Of a stretch of DNA of 13,979 bases, positions 1-7,786 are shown piece after piece. Both the position numbers and the translations under genes were made by a program. The DNA is from a virus. Its lineage: Duplodnaviria; Heunggongvirae; Uroviricota; Caudoviricetes. The stretch lies in the IMG/VR virus record IMGVR_UViG_2737471865_000007; one strand, written 5' to 3'. Every line of letters starts with the position of its first letter. Within the stretch, counting starts at the first letter, position 1. The notes under the pieces were generated by a model. It made no database searches. It was not told where the DNA came from and worked only from the letters and a program-made list of their open reading frames with translations.

Positions 1-2
1 TA

Positions 3-212
3 ATGTGGAATTGCGGGATGAATATTGAAGAGATAGCAAAAGAATTAAAAGTAACCTGCTTTCATGTCTGGGGCTTGTTGAGTGAAATCCTGCCACGTAA
101 GGAGCTTAATCAACGTTTGCCTAAGCCCGGTAGTCGTGCTTATCGCGAATTTATATTCATCTACCGCCGCCATAGAAATAAAGTCCAGAAAGCAATGGCC
201 CAGAAAGCCTAA
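3..212 (+). CDS. Hypothetical small protein (69 aa), possible helix-turn-helix DNA-binding protein
   Basis: ORF from six-frame track; ATG overlaps an upstream in-window TAA (TAATG at 1-5), suggesting translational coupling to a gene ending at the window edge; segment NIEEIAKELKVT resembles an HTH. RBS not visible because of the window edge. Confidence 0.4.
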   Translation: MWNCGMNIEEIAKELKVTCFHVWGLLSEILPRKELNQRLPKPGSRAYREFIFIYRRHRNKVQKAMAQKA

Positions 213-320: not shown

Positions 321-764
321 ATGTCTCAAATCGCTAAATTATTATCCCAGGTTATCAAAGCTATCGACGCTGAAGATTCAAAAGTTCGCCAGGATCTTTT
401 AGATGGCAAGTTTACCAACACCCTGGCATTTACCCGTGACAAAGAGCACTTCTTAAAACACAGACACCACGCTTTTGCTGAATGCAAGTCCGCTAATGGT
501 GATGTTTTCTATGTCGATTTGGTGGTTATGGCATGTAGGCTGTGGATGATTCAGGACCTTATGCGCCAACACGGTGATGATCCTCTTATCAGCATGTGGA
601 ACAGCGCCCAGGATGGCTTTGTGATTGCTGCCTTATCCAAATCAATGATTGAGGCAGAAGGGGCAAGCCTTCAGAACATGGCAGATCTCTTTGAAATAAG
701 CGTAGGAATGATGCAGACCATGCTCCAAGCTGTCAAACCTCTCAAACTGGTTAGTCTTGATTAA
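321..764 (+). CDS. Hypothetical protein (147 aa)
   Basis: ATG at 321 preceded by AAGGA (311-315); no overlapping stronger ORF; no motif I can assign. Confidence 0.55.
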   Translation: MSQIAKLLSQVIKAIDAEDSKVRQDLLDGKFTNTLAFTRDKEHFLKHRHHAFAECKSANGDVFYVDLVVMACRLWMIQDLMRQHGDDPLISMWNSAQDGFVIAALSKSMIEAEGASLQNMADLFEISVGMMQTMLQAVKPLKLVSLD

Positions 765-818: not shown

Positions 819-1208
819 ATGCCTATGAATATTGAAGAAATGATAGTTGAATTCGAAGAGGGTGATTTCCTGGAAGAAGGGGAGTTTAAATACTCCCGTT
901 TTAAACAGGCGTTATTTAGCAGCGATGATAAACCCCACGTTAGTGATCTTAATGATGATGATTTATGTCGCTTGGTGTGCACCCGCTTATATGAAGATGG
1001 AAAGTATACAGGCCAAAACTTTCCAAATCTCTATTTCAAAGCACAAACATTTGAGGAAGGGCAAAGAGTGAAAAACCTGGTCGATAAAATGCTGTCAGCC
1101 GGATATTTGCATAAAGAATTATTAAATCCTAAAGCTGAAAGCAAGCGCCATTATATTTTTGTGTGGACTATTGGCGATAAGTGTCCACTAAGACGCAAAG
1201 GCAAATGA
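819..1208 (+). CDS. Hypothetical acidic protein (129 aa); position and acidity compatible with a tail assembly chaperone
   Basis: ORF directly upstream of the tape-measure gene; strongly acidic N-terminal half (EEMIVEFEEGDFLEEGEF). Function is positional inference only. Confidence 0.5.
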   Translation: MPMNIEEMIVEFEEGDFLEEGEFKYSRFKQALFSSDDKPHVSDLNDDDLCRLVCTRLYEDGKYTGQNFPNLYFKAQTFEEGQRVKNLVDKMLSAGYLHKELLNPKAESKRHYIFVWTIGDKCPLRRKGK

Positions 1209-1209
1209 T

Positions 1210-1446
1210 ATGAATACCTACGAAAAGATTTATCAAAAACTGGTTAAGGACTCCGAAGAGATACCCGAAGTGGTGACAATAGGTCACCTGCCAGAGGCAG
1301 CGAAAGAGAGGTCCACCATTATTAAAAGTGGCTCCCACACAGAAGGCCTCTCAATCGAAGAGCTTGCGGAGAAATATAATATTGATAAAGAGGCCCTGAA
1401 AAGGGCTATTTCATTATCAAAATCTTTAAGACAGGGCGAGGTATAA
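1210..1446 (+). CDS. Hypothetical protein (78 aa) with HTH-like segment
   Basis: Start overlaps upstream stop (TGATATG at 1206-1212); its stop TAA (1444-1446) is 1 nt before the ATG of the next gene, indicating a tightly coupled operon. Confidence 0.45.
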   Translation: MNTYEKIYQKLVKDSEEIPEVVTIGHLPEAAKERSTIIKSGSHTEGLSIEELAEKYNIDKEALKRAISLSKSLRQGEV

Positions 1447-1447
1447 A

Positions 1448-3568
1448 ATGGCAATGAAGGAAGTCGCCAAGCTAACAAACGTTATTTACTGGGACTCTGA
1501 TAAATCCTCCTGGCGAAAAGAAGTTAAACGGCTTGAGGATTATAAAAAATCCTGGAAGAAAGCTACCGACGATATAGCTAAAGCGGATTTTAAATCGAAT
1601 CAGGCTGTGCTCAGAACACAAAGAACACGCGCTAAGGTGGAAGAGCAGATTGCCAGAGCTCAGAGGAAACAACAGGAAGCACAGAAGAAACAACGTGCTC
1701 AGGCTGTCAGCCGTCTGACCGGGGGCAATAATCCGGAGCTCTCCTCTATGCGCAAGTTCTATCAGCAGCAAGCCAGAGAGGCCGCCAGACAACAAAAACT
1801 GTTAGATCGTAGTGTTGGAGATGTTCAGCACAGAAAAGCACGTGTAGGGGCCAACAGTGCACGAATCAGCAGCATGTTTGATGGCTCCCTGGTTGCTCAG
1901 TTCCAAAGCAGAATCCAGAGAGTTAATGCTGATTATGCTAAAGGGGCTATTAACCTGCAGACCTATAATCAGAAAATGGCTCGGCTCAGGGCTGAAATGA
2001 AGATGGCAACAGCTGAAGCCGGAAAATTCCAGAGCAGACTGGACAGAGTGAATGGCAACCTGGGGAAACTGAATTCCACACTAGGCAAGATAGCCATTGG
2101 CCTGACTGCCGCTGGCTGGGGTGTTCAGCGTGCTGTTAGTAGTGCTATGAGTGCTCAATCTGACCATAACTCAGCCTATTATGGTTTGCTTGCTCAGAAC
2201 AAGGATGATAAAGCCAAGACTGACCAGCAGATGGCTTTTATCGAGAACACAGCCAACACCTACGGTATGGATCAGCGTGAGATGGAGGGTGGCTATATGC
2301 GTTTTGCTGCCGCTACTCCCACCATGAAGGAATCTGATAAGCAGGCTCTCTTTGAGGCTATGGCTATTAAAGGCCGCTCAGTGGGTGCTACTGGCGAGCA
2401 ACAGAACAGGGCGCTTGTCGCTATTCAGCAAATGGCTGGAAAAAATCGCGTGATGGCAGAAGAGCTGCGGGGCCAGCTGTCAGAAGCCTTTGCAGGCTCT
2501 CAGCAGGACTTCCAACAGGCCGCTATTGATGCCGGAATCATCAAGAATGCCCAGGAATTCGATAAGGCCATGAAAGATGGCAAAATCACCCTGGACAAGC
2601 TACTTCCTTCTTTGGTGAAAATCTGGGGTGCTGCAAAAGAAACTGACGCTTTTGCGAAATCTATGCAACAGCCGGAAGTGGCATTGCAAAGAATGAGCAA
2701 CCAGTTTTTTAAACTAAAACAATCCTTTATGGGTGTTGTGGATCCTGCGGATGGCGTCATTACCCTGTCAGAATCCCTTATTTATATCTTTGAAGATTTA
2801 TCCTCAATTTTCAGTAGCTCAGGTGAAGATGCCAAATCTCTCGGAGTTATGTTAGGCGAGGCAATGCATGAAATTTATTTTTGGGTTAACTGGGCTTGGT
2901 GGTGGACTAAGAAGATCGCTAAAGGCATTGGTGAGACGTTAGGCTGGACCGCACAGGATGCAGGCGAGAAGATTGGCCAGGTTGTGACCGCCCTGTTAGG
3001 CCTGAAGGTTGCAACAAGCATTGCTGGCATGGTTGGCGGCCTTATTTCCATGCTGTGGAAACTTAAAGCGGCGCTTAGTGCTTTAGTCGGTGTTGGTGAT
3101 ATCAGCACTGGAGGCACAGCAGGTAAAGGCAGACCAGGTAGAGGCGGCTTTATCGGGAAAGCAGGCAGACTTGGAGGAAGATTTGCAGGTCCGGCAGGGA
3201 TTGTTTTGACAGGATTTGACATTGCAAATAGCTTAGATTCCTACTGGCAGAATCCTGATAATCAGCGGCAGGAAGGAGCTAAACATCCTGAATGGTTAAC
3301 CAGTATGGTTAATAGTGCTTCCAGCTTCCTCGGACTTGATTATCGTCTCGATGCAGGACGCTACATTACCAGACCAACACCAACGGGTGGTATTGCTATT
3401 CAGAATGGAGGCTATCAGCCGACTCAAATCAGTGTAGTTCCGCAGGGTGAGATTTCCGGCAAATGGGAGATAACTATTGATGAGGGGGGAATTGCCAGGG
3501 TGATTCAGAAGGAAGTCAGCGATCAGTTGGATTGGAAAGCCACACAGGAATCTAACCAGCTTTTCTAA
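1448..3568 (+). CDS. Phage tail tape-measure-domain protein (706 aa)
   Basis: N-terminal K/R/Q/E-rich coiled-coil region, central segment matching the tape-measure domain signature as I recall it (NRALVAIQQMAGKNRVMAEELRGQLSEAF), C-terminal glycine-rich hydrophobic segments; GAGG 6 nt upstream of ATG. Confidence 0.75.
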   Translation: MAMKEVAKLTNVIYWDSDKSSWRKEVKRLEDYKKSWKKATDDIAKADFKSNQAVLRTQRTRAKVEEQIARAQRKQQEAQKKQRAQAVSRLTGGNNPELSSMRKFYQQQAREAARQQKLLDRSVGDVQHRKARVGANSARISSMFDGSLVAQFQSRIQRVNADYAKGAINLQTYNQKMARLRAEMKMATAEAGKFQSRLDRVNGNLGKLNSTLGKIAIGLTAAGWGVQRAVSSAMSAQSDHNSAYYGLLAQNKDDKAKTDQQMAFIENTANTYGMDQREMEGGYMRFAAATPTMKESDKQALFEAMAIKGRSVGATGEQQNRALVAIQQMAGKNRVMAEELRGQLSEAFAGSQQDFQQAAIDAGIIKNAQEFDKAMKDGKITLDKLLPSLVKIWGAAKETDAFAKSMQQPEVALQRMSNQFFKLKQSFMGVVDPADGVITLSESLIYIFEDLSSIFSSSGEDAKSLGVMLGEAMHEIYFWVNWAWWWTKKIAKGIGETLGWTAQDAGEKIGQVVTALLGLKVATSIAGMVGGLISMLWKLKAALSALVGVGDISTGGTAGKGRPGRGGFIGKAGRLGGRFAGPAGIVLTGFDIANSLDSYWQNPDNQRQEGAKHPEWLTSMVNSASSFLGLDYRLDAGRYITRPTPTGGIAIQNGGYQPTQISVVPQGEISGKWEITIDEGGIARVIQKEVSDQLDWKATQESNQLF

Positions 3569-3675
3569 TGTCCACTCTGTGGATTTGAGTTCTACTCAAA
3601 CCTGCATAGCAGGCACTGATATTGTGATCAAAATCAATAAGTTAGCCTGACCGGATAAACTCCAGGCAAGAAAAA

Positions 3676-3701
3676 AGCCCCTAAGTGTTAACAAAGGGGC
3701 T
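3676..3701 (-). terminator. Intrinsic terminator for the leftward (minus-strand) operon
   Basis: 7-bp stem AGCCCCT/AGGGGCT (3676-3682 / 3695-3701) with 12-nt loop; on the minus strand the stem is followed by UUUUUCUU (plus 3675-3668). On the plus strand the downstream tract is not U-rich. Confidence 0.5.
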
Positions 3702-3731
3702 CTTCTCCGGTATCCTTTTGATGCGGGGCAA

Positions 3732-3779
3732 AACCTGCTAACAAAAATCAACCTCTCGCGAGACTAATGTTAGCAGGTT
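3732..3779. repeat. 12-bp perfect inverted repeat (AACCTGCTAACA / TGTTAGCAGGTT) flanking a 24-bp spacer that contains the palindrome TCTCGCGAGA
   Basis: Read directly from sequence; spacer carries a variant (TCAACCTCTCGCGAG) of the 15-nt motif found upstream of two genes at 8049 and 8568. Confidence 0.6.
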
Positions 3780-4120
3780 GCCGGAAGGTAAGTCAACTCC
3801 GGCCTATAAACCTTAAAGCGACTATAAAATCGCCCCGCCAATTGTGATGATCCGACCTTTGAGGCGGGTCCGGTGCCCAGGGGGTGCAGTGATGCACAAA
3901 CCAGGCAACGATAAACAGGCTAACAGTGATAGCGGCGCTCAATCAGCGCACTAAATCCTAACCAGTCCGGGAAAGAGGCTGGCTCTATCGACCGCTCATG
4001 CACGGGACAATGCATACCTGATAAAGGATTCTCACAAGGGACCAATCGCGAGAAAAGAAGTGGAAAGGGGCTGATTTGTGGTGTATCACTACGGCCTCAA
4101 AAGAACACTATTACCTTTTT

Positions 4121-4573
4121 TCAGCCTCTACCTACATTTGACCAATACTTGATTGCACCGATCAAATCATCATAGTGGCGCATTGCATCATTGAAGCCTT
4201 TATAGCTTGCCCATTGTGGTGAAACCTTGTTATTGCTGAATTGCCCACTAATCAGGATAGTCTCCAAAATGTCGGCATATCGCTTGCCAATTCGCTTTCT
4301 GACGGCCTCAGAGCTTCCACCCTTTACGATTGCATTAATCAGGGCTTTTGTGTGTCTCAGGCTCTCATAGAGCATTGCAGCGTGGGCAGATTCCATAAAG
4401 GAGCGCTTAGGCAAATCACCCCACCCCTCAGAGTGGATAGCCGCCAGTGTGGCGTAATTCAGGCCGCTATAGTGCTTTCCGTCATCCCAGCCAACCGCTA
4501 CACCTTCCATCTGTGAGAGCTCTTTATGCAGCTTATCCATCATGCGCTTGTCTATGGTGCAACGGACTTTCAT
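4121..4573 (-). CDS. Hypothetical protein (150 aa)
   Basis: ATG overlaps stop of upstream gene (ATGA overlap at 4573-4570), implying translational coupling; no assignable motif. Confidence 0.55.
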   Translation of the reverse strand: MKVRCTIDKRMMDKLHKELSQMEGVAVGWDDGKHYSGLNYATLAAIHSEGWGDLPKRSFMESAHAAMLYESLRHTKALINAIVKGGSSEAVRKRIGKRYADILETILISGQFSNNKVSPQWASYKGFNDAMRHYDDLIGAIKYWSNVGRG

Positions 4574-5346
4574 TTTGTAGCATCCTTGGCAAATTTGGCT
4601 TGCCTTTGCTGATCATAAATGTCTTTTGTGCTCATAGCCCCATCATTTTCATCGAGCAAAGTTTGTAAATTTTTAGGCTTAGCCGATGGGGTGTTGGTTG
4701 AGTTCCCGACGTTGCTATTCTTCTCAGCACTGTTAACAGCACCCTTTTGCTGTGTTTTGTTCACCTTCTTACTGTTAGTGAAAACTCCGGCATTTTCGAC
4801 CATCTTCACCTTGAAGGTGCGGAATTCTTCAAAAGTGCAATCAATAGTGATGCAGTCACCAGAGGAAGAGCTACGCTTAACTTCACATTTCGTCATGATG
4901 AAGTTCTCAAGAAGTCCGGCATCTTCACTAACCAGGCTAACCAGCTGGCGCTTGTCTCTCATTTCCATAAGAGCACGCACAGCGGCGGCAGGGCGCATTG
5001 ATTCAAGGGGATTATCTGGATCAGTGTTCCGGTCGATGTAGTTCTCTTTCCGGATGATATGAGGGGAAGAGGTAATAATCCCTGTAAAGCTGACAGATTT
5101 ATCTTTAATGACGGCATGGTCTGACATGGTGGTGCCATCCTCGACCGCATAGCTCGATTTCTCGACAGGGAACGAATAGCTGACATCAGAGATTGAGTCA
5201 AAGAAGATAGCCACGTTATCGGTATAGTTGAAGCCATCCATTATATTTTTGTTTTGTGAATATCCCCCACACATAACAGTGAATGCAGGAGATCTCGACT
5301 CAGCTTGTTTTGCAGCTGTCAGAGCATCACTAGCCATATTAAACAT
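4570..5346 (-). CDS. Hypothetical protein (about 259 aa; start ambiguous between 5364 GTG, 5346 ATG and 5337 ATG)
   Basis: ORF in six-frame track; GGAGG (complement of 5348-5352) lies upstream of the ATG at 5337; low-complexity K/N/S/T-rich C-terminus. Confidence 0.5.
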   Translation of the reverse strand: MFNMASDALTAAKQAESRSPAFTVMCGGYSQNKNIMDGFNYTDNVAIFFDSISDVSYSFPVEKSSYAVEDGTTMSDHAVIKDKSVSFTGIITSSPHIIRKENYIDRNTDPDNPLESMRPAAAVRALMEMRDKRQLVSLVSEDAGLLENFIMTKCEVKRSSSSGDCITIDCTFEEFRTFKVKMVENAGVFTNSKKVNKTQQKGAVNSAEKNSNVGNSTNTPSAKPKNLQTLLDENDGAMSTKDIYDQQRQAKFAKDATK

Positions 5347-5496
5347 GCCTCCAAATTGGTCCACTTCATGGATTTGGCTAAAGCCAAACCTGCAAAAGAT
5401 GCAGGCAAAATAGAACTTATCGTTGCCCTGCTTAAAATCTGCAGAAAATACAGGGCAGTTATTCGTTAGAATCGCTTATAGCTCTTCCCGAGAGCG

Positions 5497-5748
5497 TTAT
5501 TTTGCAAAACGATTATGGGCATTCAGGGCTTTTTTGCGGTCCTGGGCTTGTTTGCGTGCAATAAAATGTTCGAAAGTCTCGGCCCAGGTGCATTTATTAT
5601 ATTCACGGTATTTATGCATAGCCTGGCGGCTAACGTCATAGCAGGCGGCAAATGTGGAGATACGCAGGAATTCCGGCAGATCCTCGTCATCGATATGGAT
5701 AATATCAAAAGGCACGTCATCACGGTCGCCGTATAAAACAATTTTCAT
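5497..5748 (-). CDS. Small protein (83 aa) with HTH-like segment (possible DNA-binding regulator)
   Basis: ATG at 5748-5746 preceded by GAGGTG (complement of 5755-5760) with 6-nt spacer; segment AACYDVSRQAMHKYREY is HTH-like. The six-frame track extends the ORF to a GTG at 5757. Confidence 0.5.
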   Translation of the reverse strand: MKIVLYGDRDDVPFDIIHIDDEDLPEFLRISTFAACYDVSRQAMHKYREYNKCTWAETFEHFIARKQAQDRKKALNAHNRFAK

Positions 5749-5777
5749 AAAAGACACCTCAAAAACTTAAGACGGGG

Positions 5778-7268: not shown

Positions 7269-7749
7269 TTGATCACCTGCGATTTAAATTAACTCCCCTC
7301 AAAGGGCTCAGGTATAACCTCTCAAACCACGACAGGCTCGGGCCGAAAAGTTATGCCGGAAATCTAAAGGGGGATTGATATAAGGAGAGGGAGATAGCCC
7401 CGCACCGTCCAAGCGGGGGCTATTCCACATGGGGAAACCGACAACAGTCGGATGATAGTTCACAGTATGGTTACGGTTACTAGAGAGCACTATCACGAAA
7501 GGCACTCCCCCGAATCAGTTCAGGCTGCGGTCACATCAGCGGGGAAATACCTTTCGGGATAGCTACCCACACAGAAAACCCGCAAAAGAAAACTGTGTGG
7601 ATAACTAGCCCTGTAGGGAGAATAAGGAGAATTAATCGACCACTCAACGATGATCAGGGTAGTGTTATTTATAAGGCGGCACCGCTACCTGGTCGCCTTT
7701 ACTTTGGAGGAAAATACGGCAAATCACCTTCGCTAAATGATTCACGGTA

Positions 7750-7786
7750 TACTGTATATTGTATCAGTATTCTCTCAAATTGTCAA
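7750..7786 (-). promoter_or_regulatory. Near-consensus sigma70 promoter (leftward) overlapped by a LexA/SOS box
   Basis: Minus strand TTGACA (complement of 7781-7786), 17-nt spacer, TACAAT (complement of 7758-7763). Plus-strand 20-mer TACTGTATATTGTATCAGTA (7750-7769) fits the LexA consensus TACTGTATATATATACAGTA at the conserved CTG-N10-CAG and flanks. Confidence 0.55.

Follow-up and report, generated by a model that had tools for sequence, protein, structure and literature searches.

What kind of replicon keeps a tape measure gene at the very end of an operon, with none of the expected distal tail genes behind it? The question is raised by the 13,979-nt DNA of the IMG/VR virus record IMGVR_UViG_2737471865_000007 (Caudoviricetes), which was analysed over its full length and is called the window here. 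An earlier note, concerned with positions 819-3568, had recognised a gene for a tape measure protein (TMP) of 706 aa preceded by two small open reading frames (ORFs), and it proposed either a truncated or rearranged tail module of a prophage or the recruitment of the TMP domain for a non-canonical role. We found that the window is the entire genome of a ~14-kb circular Escherichia coli plasmid, and its gene content suggests that this element is probably a helper-dependent phage satellite, maintained as a plasmid, that would form chimeric tails around its own TMP.

A tape measure gene on a complete circular plasmid

Five genes of the window are related to virions:

1448..3568, plus strand: TMP, 706 aa, last gene of a long plus-strand operon
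4121..4573, minus strand: 150-aa protein of the neck/tail-completion cluster (phrog_222)
4570..5364, minus strand: tail tube initiator, Dit-like, 264 aa
5890..6927, minus strand: major capsid protein (MCP), lambda gpE-like, 345 aa
6933..7268, minus strand: 111-aa ORF just 5' of the MCP gene, placed like a decoration gene

The TMP identity of the 706-aa protein is well founded, as Pfam, TIGR02675, PHROG and PDB all agree. The protein matches Pfam TMP_3 (E=1.9e-13, 51 bits with a cut-off of 41), TIGR02675 (4.5e-6, 26.9 bits with a cut-off of 21.35), phrog_5255 (E=1e-142) and the chain 9cuy_W, named 'tape measure protein' in a solved myovirus entry of the PDB (E=1.2e-21). Its residues 4-703 align with residues 5-771 of the 778-aa TMP of MaxBurger, a Vequintavirus, at 25% identity, a core motif and a C-terminal motif are common to the window and phiTE, and the C-terminal third appears by eye to be hydrophobic and Gly-rich. 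The gene does close its operon, as the earlier note held, the next gene (4121-4573) being convergent. The claim that distal tail genes are lacking is true for all of them except one, since a Dit-like tube initiator is encoded on the opposite strand (4570-5364); it matches Pfam Dit_like at 9.4e-25 and PDB 9cuy_K, 'Tube initiator protein', at 2.3e-34. In phages the order is TMP and then tube initiator, whereas in the element the tube initiator lies on the strand opposite the TMP. The two genes always co-occur in the lineages of the element and both proteins are modelled in entry 9cuy. Concerning the other virion-related proteins, the 150-aa protein matches phrog_222, 'tail completion or Neck1', at 4.6e-28, and the MCP matches phrog_29 at 6.4e-21, with PF03864 (Phage_cap_E) found in its sister-lineage homologues. 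This MCP is isolated: just 29 representative clusters were retrieved at E<1e-3 among 1.84 billion proteins.

We treated 16 ORFs as genes, and ~3.5 kb of the ~14 kb are free of genes. Two operons converge on a conserved non-coding segment (3568-4121). The plus-strand operon runs from a 69-aa gene through a 172-aa winged helix-turn-helix (wHTH) gene, the replication initiator (Rep), a 48-aa acidic peptide and the 162-, 147-, 129- and 78-aa genes to the TMP, and the minus-strand operon comprises, in this order, the 111-aa decoration-position ORF, the MCP, an 86-aa ORF, the tube initiator and the 150-aa protein. In Pfam and PHROG scans of all ORFs there was no family match to terminase, portal, protease, scaffold, tube, sheath, baseplate, fibre or lysis proteins, no integrase, and none of the hallmarks of cf-PICI (portal, protease, the small terminase TerS, connectors) or of P4 (Sid, Psu, delta, primase). 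As had been suspected, the element has only part of a tail module, TMP and tube initiator being present without tube, sheath and baseplate; the lack of essential virion, packaging and lysis genes by which satellites are recognised is found in this element.

The 162-aa ORF reads unbroken over the end-to-start junction of the window, indicating a closed circle, and from end to end the window is colinear with seven circular E. coli plasmids of 13.2-13.7 kb, whose carriers are isolates from cattle, pig, chicken and human on several continents. Because the window is the whole replicon, the upstream prophage context that the earlier note assumed does not exist and there is nothing upstream to inspect. 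The length of the element lies between 13.2 and 14.1 kb in E. coli plasmids, in metagenome contigs (L022 and L023 included) and in a sister lineage represented by L019 (13,971 bp, with a 48-bp assembly repeat) and L021 (a 13,893-bp contig), in which the two convergent operons and the size are as in the window. Contigs carrying the MCP cluster mostly measure 13.4-14.3 kb, whole-element metagenome contigs of 13,870-13,971 bp bear assembly terminal repeats, and a scan for an invariant non-coding motif retrieved two further whole-element metagenome contigs of 13,870 and 13,895 bp. In L019 and L021 identity to the window is 50% for the MCP, 57-58% for the tube initiator, 49-50% for the 150-aa protein and 35-36% for the TMP. 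Two shorter contigs, L017 and L014, keep the order of the capsid operon, L017 also with a convergent TMP, and in L015 the MCP (29% identity) and the tube initiator (46%) are accompanied by a convergent 539-aa TMP-like ORF. The E. coli plasmid NZ_CP043822.1 (39.6 kb) is a circular head-to-tail trimer of the element in which one copy has truncated structural genes; it could be a real multimer or a product of long-read assembly.

The ratio of nonsynonymous to synonymous substitution rates (dN/dS), calculated on nine plasmids, ranged from 0.008 to 0.27, indicating purifying selection on all 13 genes tested. The values were 0.008 for the 150-aa protein, 0.07 for the 147-aa protein, 0.13 for the MCP, 0.16 for the 129-aa protein, 0.21 for the TMP and 0.27 for the 78-aa protein. 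Among the structural genes the TMP is the fastest-evolving one, with an excess of change at residues 500-650: its identity among most members is 68-73% (96% to NZ_JBUCKS010000006.1), whereas MCP and 150-aa protein reach 95-100%, the latter being conserved at 99-100% in the plasmid family. That gene set, gene order and length are all maintained, and that every tested gene is under selection, argues against a truncated prophage and points to a packaging size limit. A size of 13.2-14.1 kb fits either a small capsid or the packaging of a concatemer into a full-size head. The element is about one tenth as long as the 136-kb genome of a Vequintavirus.

A megablast search of phage records with the whole window gave no match. 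Scans based on the MCP, run over viral, genome and metagenome contigs, likewise gave nothing or foundered on alignment conservation. Searching the literature by accession, plasmid name and keyword, we could not find a description of these plasmids.

Relation to Vequintavirinae and the satellite hypothesis

The 16 ORFs were compared with a six-frame translation of the whole MaxBurger genome (Vequintavirus, 136 kb), and exactly four of them matched:

TMP: MaxBurger bas54_0019, 25% identity
Tube initiator: MaxBurger bas54_0020, 44% identity
150-aa protein: MaxBurger bas54_0012, 44% identity
MCP: MaxBurger bas54_0009, 24% identity

When 50,697 phage records were searched with tblastn, rV5-like phages were at the top for TMP, MCP and tube initiator, and likewise for the tube initiator of the sister lineage. 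The window's tube initiator is 44-46% identical to its Vequintavirus counterpart, and the 150-aa protein is 49% identical to phiTE_219. Neither the 150-aa protein nor bas54_0012 nor a five-sequence profile matched any virion chain in the PDB, which suggests that the phiTE orthologue is missing from the deposited virion models. For the 150-aa protein, AF2 gave an all-helical model (pLDDT 61, shallow alignment), with which Foldseek searches of PDB and BFVD returned only generic helical bundles at E>0.2. As for the MCP, its use as a specific pointer to the Vequintavirinae was weakened by its equal distance to many gpE-like proteins, and therefore it is chiefly through its tube initiator and 150-aa protein that the element is linked to this subfamily. 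The 111-aa ORF had no Pfam or PHROG match and is 42-46% identical in sister lineages; judged from its position only, it may correspond to the decoration gene that the putative helper has in the same place. Short matches of the window to the Vequintavirus genome, two of them in the 2.5-kb gene-free region of the phage, were inconsistent and not significant, and we rejected them as evidence.

A 36-nt patch of the TMP gene (window 1748-1783, TMP residues ~101-112, MRKFYQQQAREA) has 89% DNA identity to the Vequintavirus TMP gene, within a protein whose identity is 25% elsewhere. phiTE shares the motif MRKFYQQQAREA, which the sister satellite lineage lacks; a partner supplied by the helper may make contact with the TMP there.

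Considering these data, it is possible to propose how such a satellite would work. The helper would be an rV5-like myovirus of the Vequintavirinae type, supplying portal, terminase, scaffold/protease, tube, sheath, baseplate and fibres, while the element would assemble small capsids from its own MCP and place its own TMP in chimeric tails. As this TMP falls 72 aa short of that of MaxBurger (778 aa), the tail would be expected to be ~11 nm shorter (1.5-1.6 angstrom per residue). If a chaperone is needed, that of the helper would be its likeliest source. The TMP gene would end its operon because the element has only the parts of a tail core, TMP and tube initiator. More tentatively, and as a serious possibility rather than a probability, these plasmids could represent an undescribed group of enterobacterial satellite-plasmids which parasitise virulent rV5-like myoviruses, with their own small capsid and tail core (TMP, tube initiator and neck-cluster protein), no terminase or portal of their own, and control by a conserved structured RNA or cis element at the operon junction.

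Several points weigh against this proposal. Packaging, transfer and helper dependence are what we infer from sequence, and the assignment of the helper leans mainly on two proteins, which are 44-49% identical to those of the phage. The MCP is ~24% identical to the Vequintavirus MCP and about equally far from many gpE-like capsid proteins, and given this distance its fit with the portal and scaffold of the helper is unproven. No DNA similarity to Vequintavirus or to phage records that could mark a pac or cos site was found, although a short pac site would escape such a comparison. A small terminase was not recognised, the sole hint being a match of the 162-aa protein to phrog_7067 (E=0.043), and no tail assembly chaperone (TAC) was found in the element, unlike in the PLE satellites described below. 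Finally, the element is absent from the viral-contig collection.

An anti-phage defence plasmid, in which the diverged copies of TMP, tube initiator, neck-cluster and capsid proteins serve as poison subunits or decoys and the plasmid is not packaged, is an unlikely alternative that nevertheless deserves attention. Tail assembly is a known target of satellites and defence systems (Tai systems, PMC11364771; Rta of PLE11), the most phage-like proteins (44-49%) are those expected to contact phage partners, and PLSDB types these plasmids as non-mobilizable. However, the narrow range of 13.2-14.1 kb over three lineages indicates a packaging limit, which would be unexpected for a pure defence plasmid, strong purifying selection on a full-length capsid gene is difficult to reconcile with a decoy, and PADLOC gave no match. 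In satellites, interference and hitch-hiking are usually coupled, so that a defence function is compatible with the satellite hypothesis.

A decaying phage-plasmid or prophage remnant, the truncated and rearranged tail module of the earlier note, appears to us quite improbable. It would account for the incomplete structural gene set and for the tube initiator, which is inverted relative to the TMP when compared with the phage order, but not for the low dN/dS of all 13 tested genes, nor for the same partial set, order and size in lineages whose proteins are 30-50% identical. Moreover, the six-frame comparison with the helper genome revealed no pseudogene fragments of other virion genes, and strains of several hosts and continents carry the element as a complete circular replicon of its own.

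The second proposal of the earlier note, recruitment of a TMP-like protein for a function unrelated to tails, for example in membranes or secretion, is not favoured either and has very little probability in our opinion. The lack of a recognisable TAC and of tube, sheath and hub genes in cis would agree with it, as would the fast evolution and the hydrophobic, Gly-rich appearance of the C-terminal third. Yet the protein is colinear with the TMPs of the Vequintavirinae from end to end, both extreme termini and the core motif included, its gene is always linked to those of the tube initiator and the capsid protein, and the TMPs of PLE satellites have been shown to act as TMPs. An autonomous minimal tailed virus, to which the capsid and tail-core genes and the own replication module might point, can be practically dismissed, as terminase, portal, tube, sheath, baseplate, receptor-binding and lysis genes are all missing and ~3.5 of the 14 kb are non-coding.

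The small reading frames upstream of the tape measure gene

According to the earlier note, the two small ORFs occupy the position of the tail chaperone genes. The genes concerned are the following:

321..764, plus strand: 147-aa protein, a conserved core gene
819..1208, plus strand: 129-aa ORF (127 aa if the start is at 825), a lineage-specific accessory gene
1210..1446, plus strand: 78-aa ORF, 1 nt from each neighbour and directly upstream of the TMP gene

The positions given earlier for the three plus-strand ORFs (819-1208, 1210-1446 and 1448-3568) are right, and so is the absence of a slippery site, no in-frame X_XXY_YYZ heptamer occurring in the 129-, 78- and 147-aa ORFs; since ~0.5 heptamers are expected by chance per 130 codons, a missing heptamer is weak evidence when taken alone. 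The 78-aa ORF is indeed in the +1 frame relative to the 129-aa ORF. The stop-start overlap by which the two were said to be joined is not there, as the junctions read TGA-T-ATG and TAA-A-ATG, with 1-nt spacers, which hints at translational coupling. Upstream of its ATG the 78-aa frame stays open for just 6 codons, and the frame relation of the two ORFs, +1 in the window, is -1 with an ATGA overlap in CP134895. The 129-aa ORF, which had been called acidic, is so in its N-terminal third, and only mildly overall (pI 5.7).

The hidden Markov model search of the left-arm proteins, which the earlier note had proposed, recovered the TMP domain and no TAC match for the 147-, 129- and 78-aa ORFs. This negative result covers Pfam and PHROG for all three, and hhalign for the 147- and 129-aa ORFs; the profiles are shallow and a remote TAC fold could escape them. 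With these profiles, the hhalign probability against the helper-type TAC was 0.1% for the 129-aa and 0.1% for the 147-aa protein. The Vequintavirinae module differs in this respect, having upstream of its TMP an ORF that matches Phage_TAC_15 at 2.3e-23 and then a second ORF in the -1 frame. As expected from the earlier note, the two ORFs of the window are not a canonical G/GT pair: they have no TAC match and no heptamer, and their frame relation is unconserved. Judged on these features they are separate genes, not a frameshifted chaperone pair.

L019 and L021 each encode a homologue of the 147-aa protein (22-23% identity, E=1.6e-5), which has no match in Pfam, PHROG or PDB, including a profile search of the PDB with its family. 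The 129-aa ORF matched nothing in Pfam, PHROG, NCBIfam or PADLOC. Its gene is missing from the sister elements L019 and L021, and therefore it is no core partner of the TMP. In these two elements the homologues of the 162-aa protein resemble the 129-aa protein weakly in their C-terminal half (E=0.12-0.48), and a 34-nt repeat is common to the start of the 129-aa ORF and the 162-aa gene of the window. A single-sequence AF2 model of the 129-aa protein reached a pLDDT of 49 and is unusable.

Directly upstream of the TMP gene all lineages have a small charged ORF (61-89 aa), of which only an N-terminal IYQxL motif is kept. It is possible that the 78-aa ORF is a TMP-specific cofactor. Its helix-turn-helix (HTH) matches are weak (E 0.03-0.09), and the idea of an HTH regulator was weakened by the fact that the HTH-like segment is unconserved in the sister lineage.

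Known satellites and further features of the element

The closest parallel is offered by the PLEs of Vibrio cholerae, which live as satellites on the virulent myovirus ICP1 and whose own TAC, TMP and baseplate hub are 19-41% identical to their ICP1 counterparts (PMC11838301). The TMP of PLEs is 95 aa shorter and is selectively built into chimeric tails that are 10 nm shorter, and deletion of its gene abolishes 96-99% of transduction (PMC11838301). The element resembles PLEs in having its own TMP at low identity to the helper type (25%, and ~20% in PLE) and shorter than that of the helper (by 72 aa, and by 95 aa in PLE), a baseplate-proximal partner at ~41-44% identity, a virulent myovirus as related phage, and a conserved small-RNA candidate beside the TMP gene, PLEs having the conserved small RNA SviR. 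On the other hand, PLE is an integrated island with an integrase, while the element is a plasmid with Rep and iterons; PLE uses the capsid protein of the helper with the scaffold TcaP, while the element has its own MCP; and PLE has a recognisable TAC and, in some variants, the hub BhuB, while no TAC is detectable in the element, where tube initiator and 150-aa neck-cluster protein are the partners of the TMP. The likeness is drawn from the described features.

Satellite-plasmids exist in Vibrio, without tail genes (PMC13230959). These elements, cf-PISP and PISP of Vibrio crassostreae (PMC13230959), are like ours small (11-16 kb), circular and extrachromosomal, with replication and capsid gene(s), and have been interpreted as satellites kept as plasmids. 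They possess portal, protease, small terminase or adaptor together with parA and no tail genes, which is the reverse of the element; moreover, the latter has E. coli as host and a distinct capsid lineage. The EPIP satellites of Mycolicibacterium aichiense encode a TMP and have altered tails (PMC12822802). They share with the element an own MCP and an own TMP, and their particles are reported to have smaller heads and an altered tail length. The serine integrase, small terminase, scaffold, head-tail adaptor and stopper of EPIP are all lacking in the element; the host of EPIP is actinobacterial and no plasmid state has been described for it. Compared with the Vequintavirinae module (MaxBurger Bas54; phiTE structure, PMC11972413), the MCP, bas54_0012/phiTE_219, TMP and tube initiator are homologous and a small gene stands directly upstream of the MCP gene in both, but the phage has >40 virion genes in one direction and the element four to five in two convergent operons.

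Satellites, satellite-plasmids and satellite-encoded TMPs are thus already known, and it is their combination here that appears to be new: a plasmid-borne element of E. coli with its own MCP, TMP, tube initiator and neck-cluster protein, without TerS, portal or TAC, and with a link to virulent rV5-like phages. If these plasmids do parasitise rV5-like myoviruses with a small capsid and tail core of their own, they would be without precedent in two respects, as satellites of a large virulent coliphage and as plasmid-borne satellites that remodel the head as well as the tail. The rebuilding of tails by satellites, so far shown only for Vibrio PLEs, would be extended to a minimal plasmid-borne system with four to five virion genes. 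Phages of the rV5-like group are common candidates for E. coli therapy and biocontrol. A plasmid that hijacks or blocks them would alter phage efficacy and add a new route of gene transfer in E. coli. The element would also be a compact system for asking which components must co-vary with the TMP, how a foreign capsid protein uses the portal and packaging motor of a helper, and what the conserved element 3789-4105 does.

The latter is one of two features found between the convergent operons:

3671..3760, minus strand: candidate small RNA of ~90 nt with a promoter (3796..3767) and a terminator hairpin of its own
3789..4105, minus strand: strongly conserved non-coding segment that separates the convergent TMP and 150-aa genes

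The segment 3789-4105 is the most conserved DNA of the element, with 97-99% identity among plasmids and 77.5% over 333 nt to L019, above any coding segment, while the proteins of the sister lineage are just ~50% identical. RNAalifold, applied to 3660-4120 (including the small-RNA terminator), predicted 84 pairs, 24 of them with compensatory changes, and many G-U pairs when the minus strand is read. Rfam gave no match at E<=0.1, and the segment 3700-4125 matched no phage record and, in E. coli, only the same plasmids. Taken together, 3789-4105 is a candidate for a structured RNA, a packaging site, another cis site, or an RNA and packaging site at once.

The promoter of the small-RNA candidate (TTGACT-18-TAACAT, extended -10) is conserved in the sister lineage, where the terminator stem is also kept through compensatory changes, and the z-score of its fold energy is -2.1. 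The terminator, a hairpin and T-run at ~3705-3671, was missed by an automated scan. It corresponds to the convergent terminator that the earlier note had placed after the TMP gene; the hairpin and T-run are indeed there, in an orientation that serves the minus strand. In a scan for RNA duplex targets of the small-RNA candidate the energies mainly reflected sequence length. The plus strand has four copies of a 21-nt motif (AAATCAACyTCTCGC...), all of them intergenic (3745-3765, 7286-7306, 8046-8066 and 8565-8585); one copy lies within the small-RNA candidate and one just 5' of the start codon of a 195-aa gene. The motif could be an operator or an antisense target.

The remaining features of the window are these:

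5497..5757, minus strand: 86-aa small ORF between the MCP and tube initiator genes, HTH-like by eye
7758..7786, minus strand: near-consensus sigma-70-like promoter TTGACA-17-TACAAT upstream of the capsid/tail operon (consensus match only)
8276..8536, plus strand: 86-aa DNA-binding protein with a resolvase-type HTH (HTH_7; Pfam 3.4e-6; 47% identity in L019)
8594..9181, plus strand: 195-aa protein with a signal-peptide-like N-terminus (by eye), in what looks like a variable cargo slot
10528..10714, no strand: five ~21-nt iterons, candidate replication origin
11599..11627, plus strand: near-consensus sigma-70-like promoter TTGACA-17-TAAAAT upstream of the plus-strand operon (consensus match only)
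11754..11963, plus strand: 69-aa first gene of the plus-strand operon, conserved in all lineages
11983..12501, plus strand: 172-aa wHTH ORF, an insertion between the 69-aa gene and Rep
12505..13419, plus strand: Rep, wHTH, phage O-like, 304 aa (phrog_270 8.4e-8, phrog_678 2.6e-6)
13703..13979 and 1..212, plus strand: 162-aa double-HTH gene spanning the window junction

The position of the 86-aa ORF at 5497..5757 is conserved and its sister-lineage homologues have 32-40% identity. The identity of Rep between members ranges from 39 to 94% and varies in step with the iteron region. For the 172-aa wHTH protein a partial homologue was found only in NZ_CP020521.1 (61%, inside a 303-aa ORF), the gene being absent from the other plasmids compared. 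The 162-aa protein, a conserved core gene product that is 43-48% identical in the sister lineage, showed weak matches to the HTH of KorA/TrfB (E=0.066 in the window and 0.006 in L019).

The 195-aa protein has no detectable homologue in five of the nine sequences compared, though an ORF is annotated there. PADLOC returned weak HTH-type noise only for the proteins of the element and nothing for this one. In L015 a protein of different sequence has a similar signal-peptide-like N-terminus, and the cargo slot is possibly used for superinfection exclusion. Next to it, all family members have a gene-free region of ~2.5 kb (9181-11750 in the window), of which 9251-10250 is conserved at 89-96% and the iteron block is variable.

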